From: a candidate division WOR-3 bacterium
Lineage (GTDB): Bacteria > Hydrothermota > Tepidihabitantia > Tepidihabitantales > Tepidihabitantaceae
Direction: 5' to 3'
Length of the DNA stretch: 33,427 nt
NCBI GenBank assembly: GCA_903908785.1
Contig: CAIVTL010000054.1
Coordinates: 1-33,427, forward strand
The number at the start of each line of letters is the position of its first letter. Position 1 is the first letter of the stretch. The position numbers and the translations under genes are program-made. Of this stretch, positions 1,430-11,771 are shown one piece after another. The notes under the pieces were generated by a model that was given only the letters and a program-made list of their open reading frames with translations, had not been told where the DNA came from and did no database searches.

Positions 1430-1546
1430 CCGGAAGGGCTGATGACCGCTGTTCCAGCCATGACTCTTGCGGGAGTGAAACCGCGCGCAGAGGCGCGAAG
1501 GGATGGCGTCAAATCCGAAAGGCCCGAAACAACTCCAGGAGGTCCG

Positions 1547-3514
1547 ATGACCAGTAAGAGTCGTTCGATCTGGGCGATTCTGGCGCTCGTTCTCCTTATG
1601 GGAACCACGGGCGCATTTGCCCAGCAACTGCTTGACCCGACCACGCTGACCAAGTACATTGACCCGCTGCCGCAGCCGGCAATCAGGACGCCGACCGGCA
1701 ACCTTGATGGATACCCGCTGTACGACGTGTATCTCCGCGCGGCAAATCAGAAGATGCACAGCCAGCTTGATTCCACCACCGTCTTCACCTTTGACGGCGG
1801 AACGCCCGCGTCAACGTTCCTCGTGCAGGAAAACCACCCGATTTTTGTCCGCTATCACAACGACCTGCCATACCATCACATGCTGGCAGTGGATACAACT
1901 ATCCACATCATGGCCGGCATGGGCTGGGGCGATAAGTCCCGTTTCGTGGCCCACCTCCACGGCGGCGACGTCCCGTCGGCCTTTGACGGCTGGTGCATGA
2001 ACACAATCGACCCGGGTCAGCAGACGACCTACTGGTACCCAAATAGCCAGCAGGCAGCTACCCTTTGGTACCACGACCATTCGTGCGGTATCACCCGTCT
2101 CAACGCCTATGCCGGGATTGCCGGTTTCTACCTCATCATCGACCCGTACGAGCGCAGCCTGAACATGCCGGCCGGCGCGTACGAACTCGGTATCGCGGTC
2201 CAGGACCGTCAGTTCTACCAGAACGGGCAGCTCTTCTACCCGGCGCTGTGGGTCCCCGAGTTCTTCGGCGACGTCTCGCTCGTCAACGGTGTCATCTGGC
2301 CCAAGCTCGAAGTCGAACCGCGCAAGTACCGCATCCACATGCTGAATGGCTGCGACGACCGCTACCTCAGCATGAGACTCCTCCAGAGCGACTCGCTGGG
2401 CACCGTCGCTCCGGATTCGGCCGGCGGCCCGGCGTTCTACATGGTCGGCACCGAGCAGGGACTCGTGTCCAACACGGTCGTGCTCAACAATCCATTCTCC
2501 CGAGTGACCGACCCCAACTCGCCCCGGCTGCTTCTCGGCCCCGGCGACCGGCGCGACCTCATCATCGACTTCGCGGGCAAGCAGGGCCAGTATTTCCTGA
2601 TGCACAACAACGCCAGCGCTCCGTTCAACGGCACCTACCCGCCCAACCCGGAGAACCCGCTGCCTGAGCTCTTCCTCGTCCACGTGAAGGACACGAGCGT
2701 GGTCGACCCGTATACCATTCCGATGCACCCGCGCCAGCAGCCGGTCTACGACACGGCCGCCGCGGTGATAAGCCGTGACATCGTGATGGAAGAAGTCCAC
2801 GACTCGCTGGGCAACCCGATGATGGTGATGCTCAACGGCGAGGGCTTCATGGACCCCTGCAGCGAGTTCCCGATACTCGGGACCACCGAAATCTGGAAGT
2901 ACATCAATACCACCGTGGACATGCACCCGATGCACATGCACCTCGTCAACTTCCAGATTGTCGACAAGACACCGTTCAACGTCGACACCTTCATGCTGAC
3001 CCACCGGGTCGTCTTCACCGGCCCGGCCGAAATGGCGGAGCCGCAGGAAATCGGTCGCCGGGACATGGTCAATTGCCCGCCCGGCTACGTCACGCGCGTC
3101 ATCACCAGCACCTTCAACCGCACCGGCAAATACGTCTACCACTGCCACATTCTCGCGCACGAAGAGAATGACATGATGCGGCCGTTCGAGGTCGTGGATG
3201 GCGGCGGGTCGGACCAGCAGGTCGCGGCCAACCCCTTCGACCTCCAGCTTCGCTCGAACGGGCCGAACCCGTTCCGCTCTCAGACCAAGATCTCGTTCGC
3301 CGTGCCCTACCGGCAGAACGCCCGGCTCAGCGTCTACGACGTCACCGGCCGGGAAATAAAGACACTGGTTGCGGGTGCGGTTGATGCCGGCCCCCGCCAG
3401 TTCGCGTGGGACGGCACCAACGCCCACGGCGCTCATGTCGCCGCCGGCGTGTACATGTACAAGCTGGTGACCGAACTCGGCTCCCGGACCGGAAGACTAA
3501 CCCTGGTCCAGTAG
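1547..3514 (+). CDS. Multicopper oxidase (CotA/bilirubin-oxidase/laccase-like) with T9SS C-terminal sorting domain
   Basis: All four copper motifs are present: HLHGG, WYHDH, HPMHMH and HCHILAHEENDMM. ATG at 1547 follows AGGAGG, and the signal peptide is MTSKSRSIWAILALVLLMGTTGAFAQQ. The C-terminus NPFRSQTKISF...VYDVTGREI...GVYMYKL...RLTLVQ is Por/T9SS CTD-like. Confidence 0.92.
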   Translation: MTSKSRSIWAILALVLLMGTTGAFAQQLLDPTTLTKYIDPLPQPAIRTPTGNLDGYPLYDVYLRAANQKMHSQLDSTTVFTFDGGTPASTFLVQENHPIFVRYHNDLPYHHMLAVDTTIHIMAGMGWGDKSRFVAHLHGGDVPSAFDGWCMNTIDPGQQTTYWYPNSQQAATLWYHDHSCGITRLNAYAGIAGFYLIIDPYERSLNMPAGAYELGIAVQDRQFYQNGQLFYPALWVPEFFGDVSLVNGVIWPKLEVEPRKYRIHMLNGCDDRYLSMRLLQSDSLGTVAPDSAGGPAFYMVGTEQGLVSNTVVLNNPFSRVTDPNSPRLLLGPGDRRDLIIDFAGKQGQYFLMHNNASAPFNGTYPPNPENPLPELFLVHVKDTSVVDPYTIPMHPRQQPVYDTAAAVISRDIVMEEVHDSLGNPMMVMLNGEGFMDPCSEFPILGTTEIWKYINTTVDMHPMHMHLVNFQIVDKTPFNVDTFMLTHRVVFTGPAEMAEPQEIGRRDMVNCPPGYVTRVITSTFNRTGKYVYHCHILAHEENDMMRPFEVVDGGGSDQQVAANPFDLQLRSNGPNPFRSQTKISFAVPYRQNARLSVYDVTGREIKTLVAGAVDAGPRQFAWDGTNAHGAHVAAGVYMYKLVTELGSRTGRLTLVQ

Positions 3515-4539: not shown

Positions 4540-5997
4540 TTATTCCGACCGCTCGGGACGGGTGATGCCGTGTTTGCGCATCAGTCGGTAGATGTGGACG
4601 CGGCTGTAACCGGCCAGCTTGGCGGCCTCAGTCGCATTCCAGTTCGCCTTCTCCATGTAGTTGAGGAGAAGCCGTTTCTCGACGTCGCCGCCGATTTCGG
4701 TTTCGACCGACGAACGTGCGTGGCGCAACGGGCCGGCCGGCCCCGGTCGAGCCGCGGGAATGCCCGTCCGGAATTCCTCGGGCAGGTCCTGAAGCCGGAT
4801 GGTGCTTCCTTCCGCTACCACGACGGCGCGCTTGATGACGTGTTCGAGCTCGCGGATATTGCCGGGCCAGTCGTGGGCAAGCAGATGCTGGATGACCTCC
4901 GCGTCCGCCCCGGCCAGCGCCCGCTCGAATTCGAGGTTGAACTTCCGGATGAAGTAGCTCGTGAACTCGCGGATGTCGTCGGTCCGGCCGCGGAGCGGCG
5001 GCAGCACGAGTTCCACGGCGTTGAGGCGGTAGTAGAGGCCTTTGCGGAATACGCCCTCCGCGATTCGCCGGTGCAGGTCCTGGTTTGTTGCCGCGACAAC
5101 GCGGACGTCTACCTTGGTCGCGGAATGGCTGCCGACCTGTTCCACCAGGCTGTCCTGCAGGACGCGGAGCAGTTTCGCCTGCAGGGCCGGGCTCATGTCC
5201 CCGATTTCGTCCAGGAACAGGGTCCCGCCGTCGGCCGCCTCGAACTTGCCCTTGCGTTCGGTCACGCCGGTGGCGATTCCCTTGCGGATGCCGAAGAGCT
5301 CGGCCTCAAGCAGGGTTTCCGGCACCGCGGCGCAGTTGACGACGATGAACGGCAGCGCGCTCCGGCGGCCGGAATCGTGGAGCGCCCGGGCTACCAGTTC
5401 CTTGCCGGTGCCGCTCTCGCCCCGTATCAGGACCGGCACGTTGGTGTCCGCGACCTTCCGAACCACGCCGAGGTTCGCAAGCATCTGCGGGCTGCAACTG
5501 ACCATTCCGTCGTAAACCAGGCCCGGCAGTTGCCTCTCGCGACCGGTGGAAAGGACCAGTTCGGTCATTTCCCGCCCGCGCTCCCGGATGTCGGCAATCG
5601 TCCGTTCGGCGCGCTTGCGTTCAAGCGCATAGCGGATTCGGCGCGCGAGCGTGGCGCCGTTGACCGAGCCTTTGACCAGGAAGTCTTGCGCGCCCGCGGC
5701 CACCGCTTGGATACCGACCTGCCCATCCGATGAACCGGTGAGTACAACGACCGGAATCCACGGCACTGCGGCGTGCAGTTCGTAGAACGTGTCCAGGCCG
5801 GAGCTGTCCGGCAGTCCAAGGTCGAGGAGAATGACGTCATACCCGCCTCCGGCCAGGAGAGCCAGCCCGCTCGACAGTCGCTCGGCGTGCTGCAAATCGA
5901 ACCTCACGTCGCTGCTTGAATCGAGCATTTCCCGGACGAGGTCGGCATCGCCCGGATTGTCTTCGACCAGCAGCAAGTGGACGGAGAACTCAGGCAA
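4540..5997 (-). CDS. NtrC-family response regulator: REC + AAA+ sigma54-interaction domain + Fis-type HTH, with atypical GAFTGA loop
   Basis: The REC domain shows LLLVEDNPGD...DVILLDLGLPD. Walker A is GESGTGKE and Walker B is GGTLFLDEIGD; WPGNIRELEHVI is also present. The C-terminal HTH reads NATEAAKLAGYSRVHIYRLMRKHGI. TTG start at 5997 follows GGAGAA and overlaps the upstream stop by 8 nt. The GAFTGA position reads GIATGV. Confidence 0.9.
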   Translation of the reverse strand: MPEFSVHLLLVEDNPGDADLVREMLDSSSDVRFDLQHAERLSSGLALLAGGGYDVILLDLGLPDSSGLDTFYELHAAVPWIPVVVLTGSSDGQVGIQAVAAGAQDFLVKGSVNGATLARRIRYALERKRAERTIADIRERGREMTELVLSTGRERQLPGLVYDGMVSCSPQMLANLGVVRKVADTNVPVLIRGESGTGKELVARALHDSGRRSALPFIVVNCAAVPETLLEAELFGIRKGIATGVTERKGKFEAADGGTLFLDEIGDMSPALQAKLLRVLQDSLVEQVGSHSATKVDVRVVAATNQDLHRRIAEGVFRKGLYYRLNAVELVLPPLRGRTDDIREFTSYFIRKFNLEFERALAGADAEVIQHLLAHDWPGNIRELEHVIKRAVVVAEGSTIRLQDLPEEFRTGIPAARPGPAGPLRHARSSVETEIGGDVEKRLLLNYMEKANWNATEAAKLAGYSRVHIYRLMRKHGITRPERSE

Positions 5998-6454
5998 GGA
6001 GTTCTCCGCCGTTCGTCGGCAGCCGGACGACCGTCAGCCACAGGTCGTCGATGGCCCGGACGACGTTCATGAACTGTTCAATGTCCACCGGCTTGGTGAT
6101 GTAGCAGTTGGCCTGGAGTTGGTAGCAACGGACGATGTCCTCCTCGGACTTTGAGCTGGTCAGGATGACGACCGGGATGTGCTTGAGCTTCGGGTCGCCC
6201 TTCATCTCACTCAGCACTTCGCGGCCGTCCTTCCTGGGCAGGTTCAAGTCCAGCAGGATGAGGTCGGGCATGGGTTCGCCCGCGTGGTCACCCTCGCGGT
6301 GCAGATACGCCATCGCTGCTTCACCGTCCTGCACCCATTTGACGGTGTTCTTCACTTTGCAGTGCTCCAGAAGATCGATGACCAGCTCGGCATCACCCGG
6401 GCTGTCCTCTATCAGCATGATTGAAATCGGATTGACTTGTTGTTCAACCGCCAT
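5990..6454 (-). CDS. Single-domain response regulator (REC only)
   Basis: Motifs are IMLIEDSPGDAELV, DLILLDLNLPRKDG, PVVILTSS and YITKP. ATG at 6454 is preceded by GGGAGGAA. Confidence 0.9.
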   Translation of the reverse strand: MAVEQQVNPISIMLIEDSPGDAELVIDLLEHCKVKNTVKWVQDGEAAMAYLHREGDHAGEPMPDLILLDLNLPRKDGREVLSEMKGDPKLKHIPVVILTSSKSEEDIVRCYQLQANCYITKPVDIEQFMNVVRAIDDLWLTVVRLPTNGGELLA

Positions 6455-6480: not shown

Positions 6481-6574
6481 TTCTAACCGCCGATACACGC
6501 CGATTAGCGCCGATGGGCGTATTGGGTGCAGAACTGAATCTGCGTCTATCTGCGTTCATCTGCGGTCCCATCAG
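6481..6574. repeat. 94-nt dispersed element, copy A (3x NNNCGCCGAT decamers + spacer + 3x ATCTGCGNNC decamers)
   Basis: It differs at only 5 of 94 positions from 14372-14465. It overlaps the last 9-10 codons and the stop of the histidine kinase. Confidence 0.9.
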
Positions 6575-8321
6575 GTTCATCAGGTTTCACTGCGGGCCGT
6601 TTTGGCAGCGTGAATTGGAATACCGACCCGCCGCCTTCCGCCGGTTCAACCCAAATCCGACCGCCGTGCCGCTCGATGATTTTCCGGCACAGCGCCAGCC
6701 CGATTCCCGTTCCCGGGTATTCCTGCTCGGTATGCAGTCGCTTAAACACTCCGAATATTCGCTCCGCGTGCTTCGGGTCGATGCCGATGCCGTTGTCCCT
6801 GACCGCGCATTCCCATTCGGTTCCGGCGTCCCGGCAGGAGACAGATACTGTCGGCGGCGTCGCACCGCGGAACTTGACGGCATTGTCGAGCAGGTTCTGG
6901 AAGAGCGAGACGAGCTGGGCTTCATCGCCGAAGACCACGGGCAGGGGGGCGGCATCGATGACCGCTCCTGACTTCTCGATGGCGACGGTGAGGTTCTCCC
7001 TGGCCTGCGCGGCTACGCGGTCAAGATTCACAGGCGCGAAAGGTGCGGCTTTGGCTCCCACGCGTGAGAAAGTCAGGAGGTCGTTCACCAATTGATGCAT
7101 CCGTATGGCCCCGCCCGAGGCATAAGCGATATACTTGTCGGCCTTCTCGTCCAGCCGCCCTTTGTATCGCTGCCCGAGCAGTTCCACGTAGCTCGCCACC
7201 ATCCGCAGTGGCTGCTGCAGGTCGTGCGAGGCCACGTAGGCGAACTGCTCCAACTCCTCGTTGGACCGGGCAAGCTCCTGCGACTTCGCCTCCAGCGCCC
7301 GCTGCGTCACCATCCGCTCCGATGTGTCCCGCATGATTCCGACCGCATGCCACCGGTTGTTGACCCGGATTGCCGAAAGCGAAAGCTCGACCGGCAGTTC
7401 CCGTCCGTCCTTGTGTATTGCCGCGAGGTCAAGCGTCTTGCCGACGGCTGCTCCCTCGCCGGTCAGGAGGAACCGGGGAAATGCCTTGACGAAGGCGTCG
7501 AGGAATCGGGCCGGGGCCAGGAACCGGTGGAGATCGCGGCCGACGACCTCGTCGGCCCGCCAGCCGAAAACCCGCTCGGCGGCAGGATTCCAGTACGCGA
7601 CAGTACCTTCGGAATCCATCATGACGACCGCGTCGTGCGCCGTGGTGAGAATCGTCCGGAGCCGGGCTTCACTTTCTCGCAACTGCATGAGCACGGGATT
7701 GGTTATCCGGTAGAACAGCAGCGAACCGAGCAGGGCAGTGACAAGGGTCACCACCAGGCCGATGAGCCCGGCCTGGACAAACGGTGCCTGGATTTCGGCC
7801 AGGTCGATCTTGGCCACAATCCCCAGGCCGAACTCGCTGAGCGGCTCGTGCGCAGCCAGCACTTCGACCCCGCGGTAGTCCGGACCGATGACCGCGCCGG
7901 AAAGGCCGGACAGAGCCCGGCGCATGGGCTCGCCTCTTGTACCGTTGAACGGAATCACCATAGTGCGCGTGGGACCGGGATGCCGTTGGGGCAGGAGATA
8001 GACGATGCTGTCGCCTTCGCGGCGGGCAAGAGAGAATTCGCCGGTAAGGCCGAAGCCGGTGAACCGCTCGTTGGCATCGCGGACCTGGGCGAGCGTGGCG
8101 GCAAGCGCGTCGCCGTGCCCGGACTCCGTCGGCACCAGGTGGCTGTATTTGGCCTCGTACCGGGCTACCGCCTCTATCATCCGGGCCCCGCTATAGTCAA
8201 TTTCCTCCAACCGGGCCGTCTCTTGAGCGAGTGCCGTCCGATAGAGCAGCCCGATAATCACCGCCGCGACCACGAACACGGCGACCGTGAAGATGCCTGT
8301 GAGCAGCGATATCCGGCGCAT
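6546..8321 (-). CDS. Sensor histidine kinase: TM - periplasmic Cache/PDC-like domain - TM - PAS - HisKA - HATPase_c
   Basis: There are two hydrophobic segments (LTGIFTVAVFVVAAVIIGLL and GLIGLVVTLVTALLGSLLF) and a DYRGVEVLAAHEP...GLGIVAKID Cache-like motif. A PAS domain is present (VVMMDSEGTVAYWNPAAERVFGW). The H-box is ASHDLQQPLR, the N box is LLDNAVKF, and the G boxes are DNGIGI and GTGIGLA. Confidence 0.9.
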   Translation of the reverse strand: MRRISLLTGIFTVAVFVVAAVIIGLLYRTALAQETARLEEIDYSGARMIEAVARYEAKYSHLVPTESGHGDALAATLAQVRDANERFTGFGLTGEFSLARREGDSIVYLLPQRHPGPTRTMVIPFNGTRGEPMRRALSGLSGAVIGPDYRGVEVLAAHEPLSEFGLGIVAKIDLAEIQAPFVQAGLIGLVVTLVTALLGSLLFYRITNPVLMQLRESEARLRTILTTAHDAVVMMDSEGTVAYWNPAAERVFGWRADEVVGRDLHRFLAPARFLDAFVKAFPRFLLTGEGAAVGKTLDLAAIHKDGRELPVELSLSAIRVNNRWHAVGIMRDTSERMVTQRALEAKSQELARSNEELEQFAYVASHDLQQPLRMVASYVELLGQRYKGRLDEKADKYIAYASGGAIRMHQLVNDLLTFSRVGAKAAPFAPVNLDRVAAQARENLTVAIEKSGAVIDAAPLPVVFGDEAQLVSLFQNLLDNAVKFRGATPPTVSVSCRDAGTEWECAVRDNGIGIDPKHAERIFGVFKRLHTEQEYPGTGIGLALCRKIIERHGGRIWVEPAEGGGSVFQFTLPKRPAVKPDEPDGTADERR

Positions 8322-8522
8322 CAGCGGTCACTCAGCCCGGCGACAGAACTACCGTCCCTGCAGGCTCGACGCCTGCTGCGCAGACGGTTACGGGCTGTCA
8401 GACGGCTCTTCATTATTGCGTGCGGCCCGACCCTACCTGACAGAGTCGAAGCCTGAGAGTCTACAGTCGACCCCGGCTTCGAGTCAAGGTAGTAAGGCCT
8501 GCGGACCGCAACACTGGGGTAG

Positions 8523-8539
8523 AGCAGGAAGCGTGCCTG
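8523..8539 (-). promoter_or_regulatory. Candidate sigma54 -24/-12 promoter for the kinase operon (AGGCACG-cttc-CTGCT on minus strand)
   Basis: On the minus strand, GG (8537-8536) and GC (8525-8524) have the 12-nt offset. The site is about 200 nt upstream of the kinase ATG and 30-80 nt downstream of the TGTNACA pair. Confidence 0.3.
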
Positions 8540-8568
8540 ACTCGGCCGCTCACAGGGTCATTTTGATT

Positions 8569-8619
8569 GTGTAACATGGAAGGCGACTCACAGTGGAGGT
8601 GTATCATCGCATGTTACAC
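8569..8619. promoter_or_regulatory. Pair of TGTNACA dyads (GTGTAACATG-N31-CATGTTACAC)
   Basis: Perfect 10-bp inverted repeat with half-site centres 42 bp apart. It has the same core heptamer as 1311-1349. Confidence 0.35.
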
Positions 8620-8852
8620 CCGGAAGTGACACTTCTGGAGTCGCGCCCGGCGGGCCTGGCGTACTGATAGAAGCGCGCACAGCCTTGGGCCGGGGAGGAG
8701 GAACGGGCGTCGGGCGCACCGGCACGCCGGTTGCATATTCGTGGCGCGCATGGAGAAACCCAGGTGGAAAGACAGCCTGCCGGACGCGCGCACAGTATCC
8801 GTGCCGACAGGGCAGGCAAAGGTGCAGGAAATCAGACAGAAAGGAAGTCAAC

Positions 8853-9260
8853 GTGCGTGAACTGATAGAGCGTGTAAGCGCAAGACGCTTGGGAACTGTC
8901 CGGCCCACGGACTTCTCGCGGAAGCTGGGGGACGAAGTTCGTCTTCGCCCGGTCGAGTCCATACACGTGGGTCGCGGCTTCATGCAGGTCCACCCTCAGA
9001 CTGCGGACCGGTTTGGGTTCGCGCCCGGGGACTCAGTGGTGTTGGACCTTGGCGGGGTCTTCTGGCCGTTCCGCGCGGAGCGTTCGGCCGAAGTCAAGCC
9101 CGGACAGGCGCGGATGAATAGCGCCGAGATGGCGTTTATGGGCATCCGCCAGGGGACGCCCCTTGTGGCCCGTCGCGTTCCGTCGCCGGCGGCATTGCCG
9201 CATAACTGGCCGGTTGAACACAATCGGCACGACTGGCTGGTCCCGACGGAGCCGGTATGA
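8853..9260 (+). CDS. Small protein with CDC48-N/VAT-N-like double-psi beta-barrel signature
   Basis: GTG at 8853 lies 5 nt after AAGGAAG. MQVHPQTADRFGFAPGDSVVLD...GQARMNSAEMAFMGIRQGTPLVARRV resembles the VAT-N pattern (xRxD...lgv.pGD.V.i ... G.iRmd...R.n.gv..Gd.v.v). It is a paralogue of the C-terminal half of 9724-10299. Confidence 0.55.
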   Translation: MRELIERVSARRLGTVRPTDFSRKLGDEVRLRPVESIHVGRGFMQVHPQTADRFGFAPGDSVVLDLGGVFWPFRAERSAEVKPGQARMNSAEMAFMGIRQGTPLVARRVPSPAALPHNWPVEHNRHDWLVPTEPV

Positions 9261-9490
9261 GCCTGAGCATGCAGTCACGAACGGCGGCACACGGGACCGC
9301 GTTGCGTCCAACCAGCATGTTCTACCAGCCCAAGGCCCGGATGCTGGTCATGGAGTTCCCCAGGCGCGGAACCTACATTTACCAGGGCGTGACGGCTCGC
9401 GCCTATGACCGGCTGAAGTGTTCCCTGCGCACGCAGGTCCGTTTTATCAAGAACCAAGACCGCCATTTCTGCGTCGTCGAGGCGCGTTGA
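9257..9490 (+). CDS. KTSC-domain-like small protein
   Basis: Its ATG overlaps the upstream TGA (ATGA). LVMEFPRRGTYIYQGVTARAYDRLKCSLRTQVRFIKNQDRHF fits the KTSC pattern (l.v.F..G..Y.Y.gV....y..l......g.f....r). Confidence 0.5.
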   Translation: MSLSMQSRTAAHGTALRPTSMFYQPKARMLVMEFPRRGTYIYQGVTARAYDRLKCSLRTQVRFIKNQDRHFCVVEAR

Positions 9491-9723
9491 CGCCCCATGA
9501 CAGTTCTGCGTCTACCTGACTGAATGCGGTTCGTCTTCCTGTCGTCATGGCAGCCCCGCCGACCGTAACTCGCAACTCGTAACTTGTAAGGTTGCGCTTC
9601 GCCCGCGCCAGGATTGGACCCGCGGTGCCGCGTCCGACCGGCTATCAGGCAGGCGCGGCCCGGCCGCTCACGCAACGCCGATACTGCCGTGCACGGCACG
9701 AAGCCTGCACTAACCTTCCTATC

Positions 9724-10299
9724 TTGGCAACACCAAAAGGAGAAGTCAGGTTTGAACTCGTGAAGCGTGACGGCAGACGCGAGAAGTACGACTCCGCCAA
9801 GCTTGCCAGGTCGCTCGCGCGGGCCGGCGTGGCTCCATACATGCTTGCCGGAATCCTGGACCTTGTCGGCCCGGGCCCGGAAGCGAACACCGATTCTCTG
9901 CGCGCGCGGGTTGAATCCGCGCTGGCGCTGAGGCAGCCGAGTGCCGCACGGCGGTACGCCTCCACGCGCAGTCTGACCACCCGCGGGTCCGAACATGCAG
10001 GGTTCGGCTGGATTTGCATGAACCCGGAGACTATGAGCCGATTGAACGTCAGGCCCGGCGACACAGTCTGGCTCAGCTATGATGGAGCAACGGCACCGTT
10101 CAGCGTTGAGAGTCTTGCGGACGTCGAGCGTGGGCATGCTTGGCTCAACGGCCGGGAAATGGCCGCGATGGGAGTCCGCGCCGGGACCAGGCTTGCCGCC
10201 TCCAGCGTCTATCAGGGCGCATCGCCTTCGCCTGAGGAGTATCTGGACCGCGGCCGCGCTTACGCGACCAGCCCCGGTGCCGTGCGGAACGGCGGGTAG
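9724..10299 (+). CDS. ATP-cone domain fused to a CDC48-N-like double-psi barrel; start uncertain (TTG 9724 or GTG 9760)
   Basis: FELVKRDGRREKYDSAKLARSLARAG... is ATP-cone-like (V.KRDG..E.fd..Ki). The C-terminal half ICMNPETMSRLNVRPGDTVWLSY...GHAWLNGREMAAMGVRAGTRLAAS parallels 8853-9260. AAGGAGA at 9737-9743 is not ideally spaced to either candidate start. Confidence 0.6.
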   Translation: MATPKGEVRFELVKRDGRREKYDSAKLARSLARAGVAPYMLAGILDLVGPGPEANTDSLRARVESALALRQPSAARRYASTRSLTTRGSEHAGFGWICMNPETMSRLNVRPGDTVWLSYDGATAPFSVESLADVERGHAWLNGREMAAMGVRAGTRLAASSVYQGASPSPEEYLDRGRAYATSPGAVRNGG

Positions 10300-10516
10300 T
10301 AGATGCGGCTCGGATTCCATCCGCAGACCGTCCGAATGGGGCGAACCGGTGCCGAACCAGACGCGGCGGCATCGGTAAAGGTGACTGACAGCAGTTCACT
10401 GCGTCCCCAAGGCAGGAAGGCCGGCCCAGCGCCTCGGGTGGGCCGCACCTGCCGGTACGACGATTCGCAGCCGACCGATTGCCGCGTGGAACCCGGACGC
10501 GGAGGAGATGACTGAC

Positions 10517-11299
10517 ATGAAGATGACCAGTGCAAGACGGATAGTCCTGGCTGTGCTCCTGCTCGCGCCGCTGGCGTGGGCCGGCGCGCTTGCCGCAGCG
10601 CAAGTAGTGGGAACCGCAGCAGCCGGGGCCCGGGCCGCTACCGTGACCGGATGGGTCGTGGACGCGAACTCGTGGCTGGGCCAGGGAATCCGTGGCCCGC
10701 AACATCAGGCACGCTCCGCGGCGTCGGCCGAAGCAGGTACGCCGCTGGTCATTCTTACCGACGATGGCTCAATCGTGTTCCCGGTCCAGCTCACGCCGCC
10801 GGCCGGCACGCACTCGAGCAACCTCAAGCTCGCGCCCTACGCCGAGCAACGGGTGACGGTCGGGGGCAGGCTCATCCGGCAGGGCCGTGAGAATGCGATT
10901 GTCATAGAGTACGTGAGCCGGGCAAATGACCCCGCAGCCGGGCCGCCGACCACGGCCCGGGAAACGTCCGGCGTCGAAGTCATCGCCCGAGTCAAGGAAA
11001 TGAACTCGTGGCTGGGCCAGGGTGGTTCCGGGCCCGAACAGCGGGACCGCACAGCGGCGCGCGCGAGGAGCGGTGAGCCGTTGGTGTTGGTTAACGATTC
11101 CGGGTACGTGCTCTACCCGGTCACGATGAGCACGCCCTCCGGCCCGGCGGCGAACGGTTTGCTCATGGACTATGCGGGGCAGACGGTGCGGGTGACAGGT
11201 ACGCTCATCGAGCGTGGCGGGGAGCGGGCCATCATGATTGACAGTGTGGCCGCGTACCTGCCGGGCACGGAGTTGGGAAGCCTCCGAGCGGAGAGATGA
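10517..11299 (+). CDS. Exported protein made of two tandem ~100-aa homologous domains
   Basis: ATG at 10517 lies 9 nt after GGAGGAG, and the signal peptide is KMTSARRIVLAVLLLAPLAWAGALAAA. The internal duplication pairs ...DANSWLGQGIRGPQHQ...GTPLVILTDDGSIVFPV...QRVTVGGRLIRQGRENAIVIEYV with ...EMNSWLGQGGSGPEQR...GEPLVLVNDSGYVLYPV...QTVRVTGTLIERGGERAIMIDSV. Confidence 0.75.
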   Translation: MKMTSARRIVLAVLLLAPLAWAGALAAAQVVGTAAAGARAATVTGWVVDANSWLGQGIRGPQHQARSAASAEAGTPLVILTDDGSIVFPVQLTPPAGTHSSNLKLAPYAEQRVTVGGRLIRQGRENAIVIEYVSRANDPAAGPPTTARETSGVEVIARVKEMNSWLGQGGSGPEQRDRTAARARSGEPLVLVNDSGYVLYPVTMSTPSGPAANGLLMDYAGQTVRVTGTLIERGGERAIMIDSVAAYLPGTELGSLRAER

Positions 11300-11402: not shown

Positions 11403-11771
11403 ATGACTAGAGGAAGGACCCGAACCTCGATGGTAGTTGCCGCATTCGTGCTGCTTGCGGCGGGCAGCGCGCTTGCCACGCCGCCTGACCGCATCCGGCT
11501 CAGTTACAGTGACTCGTCCCGCACGCTGACCATCGCGGTTCACCACCCGACGTTCTACCCCGCGGCTCACCACATATCCACGATTGCCGTCAGGCTGAAC
11601 GACTCGCTGGTTACCGTGCAGCGGTTCAGCGGCCAGACCAACAACCAGGAACAGGACACGCAGTGCGTGGTCCCCGGAGCAAAGCCCGGCGACCGATTGA
11701 CCGTGACCGCGGTCTGCAGTCTGTTCGGCGTGCGGACCGAAACGCTGGTCCTGCCGGCCCGCAGTCCGTGA
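11403..11771 (+). CDS. Exported small protein with partial resemblance to the superoxide reductase (desulfoferrodoxin Fe-domain) fold
   Basis: ATG follows GGAGGAA, and the signal peptide is MVVAAFVLLAAGSALA. HHPTFYPAAHHISTIAV and LTVTAVCSLFGV parallel SOR HP(x)nHHI..I and yCNxHG, but two of the His ligands are absent. Confidence 0.6.
   Translation: MTRGRTRTSMVVAAFVLLAAGSALATPPDRIRLSYSDSSRTLTIAVHHPTFYPAAHHISTIAVRLNDSLVTVQRFSGQTNNQEQDTQCVVPGAKPGDRLTVTAVCSLFGVRTETLVLPARSP

Follow-up and report, generated by a model that had tools for sequence, protein, structure and literature searches.

An ATP-cone joined to a CDC48-N-type double-psi barrel in a putative sigma-54 circuit of an uncultured WOR-3 genus

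The window analysed here comprises positions 1-33,427 of contig CAIVTL010000054.1 from a candidate division WOR-3 bacterium, and its subject is a group of three small genes between positions 8321 and 10299. Gene 1 (8853..9260, + strand) starts with GTG and encodes 135 residues, including a barrel domain (residues 29-110), a disordered N-terminus and a disordered tail ending in NRHDWLVPTEPV. Gene 2 (9257..9490, +) starts with ATG and encodes a KTSC-domain protein of 77 residues with an isoelectric point (pI) of 10.9 and a YxY motif, Y40-I-Y42. Gene 3 encodes an ATP-cone domain (9760..9969, +; residues 1-70) followed by a CDC48/VAT-N-type double-psi beta-barrel and a disordered tail (9970..10299, +; residues 71-150 and 153-179, respectively). 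The initial annotation of this DNA, made without database searches, had described the locus as a module that it could match to nothing known, and our searches of the literature, Pfam and NCBIfam came back likewise empty: neither database contains a model for the cone-plus-barrel architecture, and full-text searches, including those with the terms double-psi, cradle-loop and sigma-54, found no description of an ATP-cone/barrel protein. The architecture of gene 3 is new, built from known parts, and is found within a defined sigma-54 circuit of an uncultured genus.

The relatives of gene 3 begin with MFELVKRDG (ATG TTC GAA CTC GTG...), and the codon corresponding to their start is AGG in the window (9748-9750). 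Judging from the sequence, translation here probably begins at GTG 9760, located 16 nt after an AGGAG box, yielding a protein of 179 residues; alternatively, the AGG might be an assembly error. The N-terminal domain is assigned to the ATP-cone family on the basis of its Pfam score, its contact residues and a weak match to an NrdD structure. PF03477 scores 26.3 bits on gene 3 and 27-36 bits on its relatives P0051, P0058 and P0066. In the repressor NrdR, the site for adenine nucleotides consists of residues K50, E56, F58 and K62, and function is lost on mutation of K50 or K62 (PMC9110341). Gene 3 has K2, E8, Y10 and K14 at identical spacing, and across 73 diverse family members the four positions are occupied by K in 70, E in 58 (Q in another 12), F or Y in 72, and K in 69 proteins. 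In a search of the PDB, the gene 3 family profile matches the cone of P. copri NrdD (8p23) weakly (E 0.007), and a profile of the cone alone retrieves only spurious designed helical repeats. The AlphaFold model contains four helices in this region (residues 12-21, 26-36, 44-58 and 60-68) with predicted local distance difference test (pLDDT) values of 67-79; residues 1-5 fall below 50, and the beta-hairpin that roofs the four-helix bundle of ATP-cones is not called. The fusion of the second barrel to an ATP-cone, as first proposed, is thus borne out by the Pfam score together with the NrdR contact residues.

The barrels of genes 1 and 3 are paralogous, with 37% identity over 102 residues (E 6e-17), and a whole-genome search of the 4.2-Mb assembly recovered only these two copies. 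Both were modelled with confidence (pLDDT ~90 for gene 3 and >90 for gene 1), and Foldseek comparison of the two models with 7dg9 and 7di0 (archaeal VCP-like double-psi barrels) and with p97/CDC48 N-domains gave TM-scores of 0.75-0.85 and root-mean-square deviations of 1.3-2.0 A over 80-88 columns, in agreement with the earlier assignment of both to the CDC48-N/VAT-N type. At the sequence level, individual Pfam matches are sub-threshold, with PF02359 (CDC48_N; cut-off 35.1 bits) scoring 15.9 and 21.0 and with weak profile similarity to Molydop_binding (PF01568) and FwdD over the first psi-loop; the profile built from 73 relatives, in turn, matches CDC48-N chains in the PDB, and double-psi barrels designed from them, at E values of 4e-8 to 1e-4. 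Besides fold and profile similarity (to E 4e-8), the resemblance to the N-domain of CDC48, p97 and VAT (Nn) extends to PGD-x-V psi-loop motifs in both halves of the barrel. Unlike CDC48 and VAT, however, the barrels studied here are bacterial, are free-standing or fused to an ATP-cone, and lack the beta-clam subdomain (Nc) as well as the D1/D2 AAA+ rings: both proteins stop 25-30 disordered residues past the barrel, and a Pfam scan detected no AAA domain in either open reading frame (ORF), as had been pointed out at the outset.

The same models bear on two functional possibilities for the barrel. The initial annotation had related the fold to the DNA-binding proteins AbrB and MraZ, an idea that received no support from our comparisons. 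No AbrB or MraZ chain was found among the best 50 structure matches for either model, both of which are monomeric double-psi barrels, and there is no conserved basic face, with a net barrel charge near zero among members of the close family (median -2) and anywhere between -8 and +11 across the wide one. Furthermore, no barrel residue is conserved across the wide family and there is no candidate catalytic site; a binding module therefore fits better than an enzyme. An enzymatic role is unlikely also given the sub-threshold scores of the Molydop_binding and FwdD similarity, the lack of any molybdopterin enzyme context and the structural preference for the CDC48-N type.

Public gene calls begin gene 1 at ATG 8982, yielding a 92-residue product in which the first barrel strand is cut off. 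In the AlphaFold model this strand comprises residues 29-36 (pLDDT >90), encoded 5' of ATG 8982, and the Shine-Dalgarno sequence AAGGAAG (8841-8847) and GTG 8853 are kept in the metagenomic contig L006, which carries the sole orthologue of gene 1. We therefore favour GTG 8853. The orthologue in public calls is a 97-residue protein that likewise begins inside the barrel, its first strand removed; one source labels it 'anaerobic selenocysteine-containing dehydrogenase', an annotation wrongly carried over on account of its likeness to Molydop_binding.

The gene 1 barrel is known from the window and L006 only, and this rarity is no search artefact, given that a homologue search yielded the same picture as tblastn and motif scans over every related locus. 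In the two lineages, which are ~58% identical in protein sequence, the reading frame is intact and without indels. Positions 8817-9224 of the window cannot be aligned as DNA to the 72%-identical relative L003, both flanks being alignable. In the window and in L006, the barrel part aligns with gene 3 residues ~47-179, and the aligned stretch takes in what is left of the final ATP-cone helices, now the disordered N-terminus of gene 1. In six orthologous loci, the ORF that overlaps the KTSC start encodes 66-78 residues, is of low complexity and barrel-free, and ends in ERHDWLVPxE; the window and L006 have the tail NRHDWLVP, with the barrel in front of it. As read from these alignments, gene 1 is a recent, lineage-specific chimera in which a duplicated, sensor-less barrel of gene 3 was fused in frame to the tail of an ancestral small ORF, and the ancestral unit is the small ORF plus the KTSC gene. 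Between gene 1 and its L006 orthologue, the ratio of nonsynonymous to synonymous substitution rates (dN/dS) is 0.43 overall, the value also for the barrel, and 0.19 for the tail.

The C-terminal motif (E/N)RHDWLVP of the gene before KTSC (9222..9245, + in the window) is present in one copy in each of the eight orthologous loci of the genus and also occurs in a second genus (G194). Among the eight loci, all codon differences within the motif are synonymous third-position changes, save for the E/N exchange at the first residue, so the tail is under selection as protein. In the second genus, which belongs to the same family, an orthologous kinase-receiver-activator operon (locus L049; G194:C1:499000-517000, reverse strand) faces a sigma-54 element and a 73-residue ORF ending in AAERHDWLVPVGLV, with neither KTSC nor gene 3 present. 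The tailed small ORF is accordingly the oldest target of the circuit.

The KTSC assignment of gene 2 comes mainly from its relatives: PF13619 scores 21.6 bits on the window protein itself (cut-off 25) and matches 16/16 aligned relatives, the best at 3.4e-8, and the family profile matches the PDB KTSC chain 7x8c at 1.9e-5. The domain and the central YxY motif, conserved as Y40-I-Y42 in the family alignment, are common to gene 2 and other KTSC proteins (PF13619; PDB 7x8c, 4rgi), from which gene 2 differs by an N-terminal extension of 20 residues and by translational coupling to a small tailed protein, its start overlapping the stop of gene 1 in an ATGA (9257-9260). Both the placement of a KTSC gene between the two barrel genes and this overlap had been recognised from the start. 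We know of no KTSC protein for which a function is established, and the likeness gives no mechanism. The dN/dS values are 0.16-0.32 for KTSC and 0.21-0.50 for gene 3.

The 530-bp intergenic region upstream of gene 1 (8322-8852) separates it from a divergently oriented kinase operon. A sigma-54 -24/-12-like element, AGGCACGCTTCCTGCT (8523..8538, - strand), faces the kinase operon, its spacing kept in eight loci, and a second element, CGGCACGCCGGTTGCA (8720..8735, +), with one mismatch to TGGCACN5TTGCW, faces the gene 1-KTSC operon. Between the two lies a putative enhancer, or upstream activating sequence (8569..8619, no strand assigned), consisting of a perfect 10-bp inverted repeat, GTGTAACATG / CATGTTACAC, in which two TGTNACA dyads are contained, together with a third box, TGTATC. 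A further -24/-12 element, CGGCACGAAGCCTGCA (9694..9709, +), is found 50 nt upstream of gene 3. The 8720 element is near-identical in L003, L006, L007, L011, L035, L046 and L044, and the distance between the leftward and rightward promoters is 158-183 bp in eight orthologous loci, where both promoters and the TGTAACA box appear as footprints in otherwise diverged DNA, the TGTAACA being invariant and the other boxes conserved. The two back-to-back promoters predicted from this pattern share a TGTAACA-type putative enhancer. The 9694 element is an invariant 16-mer in six orthologous loci with diverged flanks, and 10/11 of the gene-3-type genes checked have a -24/-12 element 38-69 nt upstream (background about 0.1-0.35 matches per kb, both strands); paralogues only 27% identical to gene 3 also have one, differing in the spacer bases. 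The genome encodes rpoN (contig C219) and ~11 full sigma-54 activators, one of which adjoins the locus. By the conservation of these elements, sigma-54 dependence of the transcription of gene-3-type genes and of the gene 1-KTSC operon is well supported.

In eight relatives, the small ORF is separated from its sigma-54 promoter by a leader of 235-256 nt that contains three conserved hairpins (L003:5030-5149, L006:3260-3379, L011:5067-5186, L007:1387-1506, L035:5733-5852, L046:1331-1450, L044:8652-8771(-) and L049:9561-9680(-)). Compensatory changes affect 9/26 pairs of the longest stem, GCTGCCGGGA...TCCCGGCAGC. The window (8736-8852) is without the hairpin segment: ~110 nt of the conserved leader are gone and a leader of 133 nt remains. 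A riboswitch or other known RNA in the leaders was considered and rejected, the best Rfam hit being a chance match of 20.7 bits; a search for intrinsic terminators between the genes yielded nothing beyond chance.

The divergent operon encodes a sensor histidine kinase (6546..8321, -), with two transmembrane segments around a periplasmic part followed by PAS, HisKA and HATPase_c domains in Pfam; a single-domain response regulator (5990..6454, -; Response_reg 1.5e-21), syntenic in L003, L011, L035 and L049; and an NtrC-type response regulator (4540..5997, -) in which Pfam recognises a receiver (Response_reg), a sigma-54 AAA+ domain (Sigma54_activat 3.4e-62) and HTH_8. Orthologues of the sensor domain of the kinase adjoin small-ORF/KTSC genes in five species of the genus and in one other genus. 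The suspected link between the three genes and this two-component operon holds, with both the operon and the layout of the intergenic region preserved in eight related loci. The L1 loop of the activator (5240-5257, -) reads GIATGV instead of GAFTGA. Its orthologues in L003, L011 and L049 have GIATGV or GAATGV, the latter being the loop of the activator from the other genus, so that replacement of GAFTGA is conserved across two genera. By contrast, the activators beside paralogous KTSC modules have the canonical GAFTGA.

The close family of gene 3 consists of 38 proteins with 48-85% identity, all from metagenome-assembled genomes of WOR-3 and from metagenomes. A survey of 272 genomes from the phylum gave full-length matches only in the genus of the window, in 7/11 species, with five copies in one of them. 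This type of KTSC gene is present in 8/11 species, including all seven with gene 3, and three species have neither; wherever the flank suffices, the KTSC gene either precedes gene 3 by 0.3-1.7 kb or follows it immediately. A sigma-54 activator gene, too, invariably accompanies the close family of gene 3. KTSC and gene 3 co-occur and adjoin each other even in paralogous modules with as little as 27-37% identity. In one type of module, the kinase-regulator-activator operon diverges from the small ORF and KTSC, which are followed by gene 3 and by genes for secreted proteins of 263 and 122 residues. The other type contains an activator, a small HTH_8 protein, KTSC, a lipoprotein and gene 3, sometimes followed by a second ATP-cone/barrel gene and then a KTSC lipoprotein. 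One species (G218) has retained kinase, small ORF and KTSC but not gene 3, and the window's own genome has a module of the second type, also without gene 3, on contig C397. The three genes hence do not form a conserved trio, contrary to the module proposed in the initial annotation: the gene 1 barrel is confined to two loci, the six others carry the barrel-free ORF, and gene 3 itself is absent from G218. The conserved association, judged from gene content, is instead that of KTSC, the ATP-cone/barrel gene, a sigma-54 activator and sigma-54 promoters. Beyond the genus, the family extends to 213 clusters at E<1e-3 (92 at E<1e-10) in a profile search against 1.8 billion protein representatives. 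Its members are small and cytoplasmic, most of them being ~154 residues long and spanning cone and barrel. Four contexts of this wider family were examined, and in one, L040, the surroundings again include a -24/-12 element as well as genes for a sigma-54 activator, CsbD and HTH_8. A defence or phage origin was rejected: there was no PADLOC match at E<=0.1, and the sole PHROGs match, to KTSC, was at chance level (0.025).

The surroundings of the three genes look like a stress- or envelope-related regulon, as far as gene content can tell. Downstream of gene 3 are a secreted 263-residue protein (10508..11299, +) with an internal duplication and weak similarity to DUF5818, found 3' of gene 3 in several loci, and a secreted 122-residue protein (11403..11771, +) with faint desulfoferrodoxin-like similarity (PF01880, E 0.085, far sub-threshold), which in relatives is located 3' of gene 3 or of the 263-residue gene. 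Paralogues of the two, 74% and 85% identical, are encoded elsewhere in this genome, in another sigma-54 module devoid of gene 3 (G000 contig C397, L045:7840-8994), and in G218 a gene-3-type promoter directly precedes the homologue of the 263-residue gene. Upstream in the window, a secreted multicopper oxidase gene (1442-3514) is preceded by a pair of TGTNACA dyads 30 bp apart (1312-1348) and a GG-N10-GC/-24/-12-like site (1414-1429), and may belong to the same regulon. Stress-type neighbours in relatives include, besides secreted proteins, Hsp20, CsbD and cupredoxin. In a sister species, an Hsp20 gene (L007:2238-2690) and a gene for a cupredoxin-like secreted protein (L007:4019-4756) lie between and after the KTSC and ATP-cone/barrel genes, which hints at a stress- or copper-related regulon.

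Two further known systems invite comparison. Like NrdR, gene 3 is a small stand-alone protein that combines an ATP-cone, with the K, E, F/Y and K contacts, and one small effector domain. The ATP-cone acts by nucleotide-dependent oligomerisation in every studied case (PMC9110341), and by analogy a nucleotide-gated oligomerisation logic is likely for the gene 3 family. Gene 3 differs from NrdR, however, in its reversed domain order, its double-psi barrel effector and its sigma-54 promoters, and it has no Zn-ribbon or cysteine cluster, the cone starting at residue 1 and the protein containing one Cys; no ribonucleotide reductase gene was found in the gene 3 loci examined, and NrdR boxes were not searched for. 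The regulatory setting resembles NtrC/sigma-54 regulons in the kinase, the receiver, the AAA+ activator, the GG-N10-GC promoters, the dyads ~100 bp upstream and rpoN, from which it departs in the GIATGV loop of the activator and in target genes unlike those of any characterised regulon.

A regulatory or adaptor role, as suggested in the initial annotation, is plausible by analogy. Tentatively, and with a likelihood that we place somewhat below even, sequences and models point to gene 3 as a nucleotide-gated binding or adaptor module in a stress-type sigma-54 regulon, on the output side of a genus-confined circuit. ATP or dATP in the cone would change the oligomeric state of the protein, as in NrdR and ribonucleotide reductases, and this change would control what the barrel, a peptide- and protein-binding fold in CDC48, can hold. 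The likeliest partners would be the products encoded next door, namely, the basic KTSC protein and/or the small (E/N)RHDWLVP protein; the fusion of barrel and tail in gene 1 is a Rosetta-stone hint, classic and weak, at the latter. On this view, gene 1 would act as a variant or competitor that lacks the sensor. The promoters may be fired by the adjoining NtrC-type activator.

Several observations weigh against the proposal of a nucleotide-gated adaptor. The PF03477 score of gene 3 is marginal (cut-off 25.8 bits), and nucleotide binding, oligomerisation and protein contacts are all predictions. Because GIATGV replaces GAFTGA, the adjoining activator may not fire these promoters. KTSC may not be a general partner, since the other three wide-family contexts are mutually unrelated and without KTSC or sigma-54 signals. 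The small ORF and gene 3 do not strictly co-occur, the former being found without the latter in G218 and G194 and the latter without the former in G212 and G221. Copies also decay: in one locus, a second ATP-cone/barrel gene (L011:6136-6951), placed right behind a gene-3-type promoter and before an intact gene 3, is broken by two frameshifts that leave an apparent stand-alone barrel ORF, and some of the 'barrel-only' proteins in databases may be such remnants. Finally, residues 118-135 of gene 1 are disordered and undocked in the AlphaFold model; with only two sequences covering the tail, this neither supports nor excludes the idea that the tail is a peptide ligand.

That idea belongs to a bolder version of the proposal, which we consider a long shot. 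The N-domain barrel of CDC48/p97 is a docking surface for proteins and peptides and reads adaptor motifs. The cone-plus-barrel protein could be its bacterial counterpart, a free-standing, nucleotide-gated receptor for short linear peptides; in this genus the ligand would be the (E/N)RHDWLVP tail of the co-regulated small ORF product, gene 1 would represent a natural receptor-ligand fusion, and the complex, together with KTSC, would feed the ATP/dATP state back into a sigma-54 stress circuit in which the activator itself no longer has the canonical GAFTGA loop.

Unlikely, and yet the least improbable of the competing explanations, is that no functional three-gene unit exists and that the locus assembles co-regulated, fast-evolving, genus-specific families, gene 1 being a decaying duplicate. 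The restriction of the gene 1 barrel to two sequences, its dN/dS of 0.43-0.58, the highest of the set, the frameshifted tandem copy in L011, the gain and loss of gene 3 among modules (G218, contig C397) and the ~110 nt missing from the leader in the window all speak for decay and turnover. They have to be set against the indel-free frame of gene 1 in two lineages that share only ~58% of their residues, with Shine-Dalgarno sequence and GTG conserved, against a barrel modelled at pLDDT >90 and a tail under clear purifying selection, and against the adjacency of KTSC and gene 3, which persists across modules 27-37% identical. We regard as quite improbable the view that gene 3 encodes a transcription factor of the NrdR kind, in which the barrel, as a cradle-loop relative of AbrB and MraZ, would bind DNA under the gating of the cone, with KTSC as a co-regulator. 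A precedent exists in NrdR, where an ATP-cone and a small DNA-binding domain make a nucleotide-sensing repressor (PMC9110341); KTSC has been called a DNA-binding domain by Aravind's group (PMC9503650), the gene 2 protein has a pI of 10.9, and small HTH_8 genes accompany the paralogous modules. However, the nearest structures are barrels of the CDC48/VAT-N type, whose ligands are peptides and adaptor proteins, rather than those of the swapped-hairpin AbrB type, and the barrel is about neutral, not consistently basic; nor is there a ribonucleotide reductase gene at the examined loci, where a repeated operator was not looked for beyond the activator-type dyads.

Just as doubtful is the possibility that an AAA+ protein, in the simplest case the neighbouring sigma-54 activators, is the target of the free barrels, which would work on it in trans either as nucleotide-sensing feedback (cf. 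PspA on PspF) or as a detached 'N-domain'. The barrel is indeed an accessory domain of an AAA+ ring in CDC48 and VAT, all gene-3-type genes of the genus and that of L040 have a sigma-54 AAA+ activator gene next to them or a -24/-12 promoter in front, and the atypical GIATGV/GAATGV loop, maintained over two genera, could mean unusual control. Against this, contact between barrel and activator is conjectural, 3/4 of the wide-family contexts have neither an activator gene nearby nor a -24/-12 element, and the activators of the paralogous modules retain GAFTGA. To our knowledge, no activator of this class has a CDC48-N-like partner.

With function predicted rather than demonstrated, the close family confined to one genus and the trio being a lineage-specific arrangement, the significance of the family lies chiefly in its architecture. 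The ATP-cone literature that we found treats the domain as an allosteric switch of ribonucleotide reductases and of the repressor NrdR; the papers listed since 2019 all deal with these proteins or name the domain only in passing. Here, the cone is found outside deoxynucleotide metabolism, with a different effector and no reductase gene in any locus examined. If it still senses ATP/dATP, nucleotide-pool sensing extends to other cell processes, and if the peptide-receptor version were true, the ATP-cone would leave deoxynucleotide metabolism altogether. The family also offers a minimal system of 150 residues for studying how a cone transmits its signal. For the CDC48-N-type barrel, this is the first bacterial, ATPase-free context, and it bears on how cradle-loop barrels are recruited. 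For the uncultured phylum WOR-3, the locus defines what appears from sequence to be a complete circuit, comprising a sensor kinase, an activator, a putative enhancer, three promoters and their targets.

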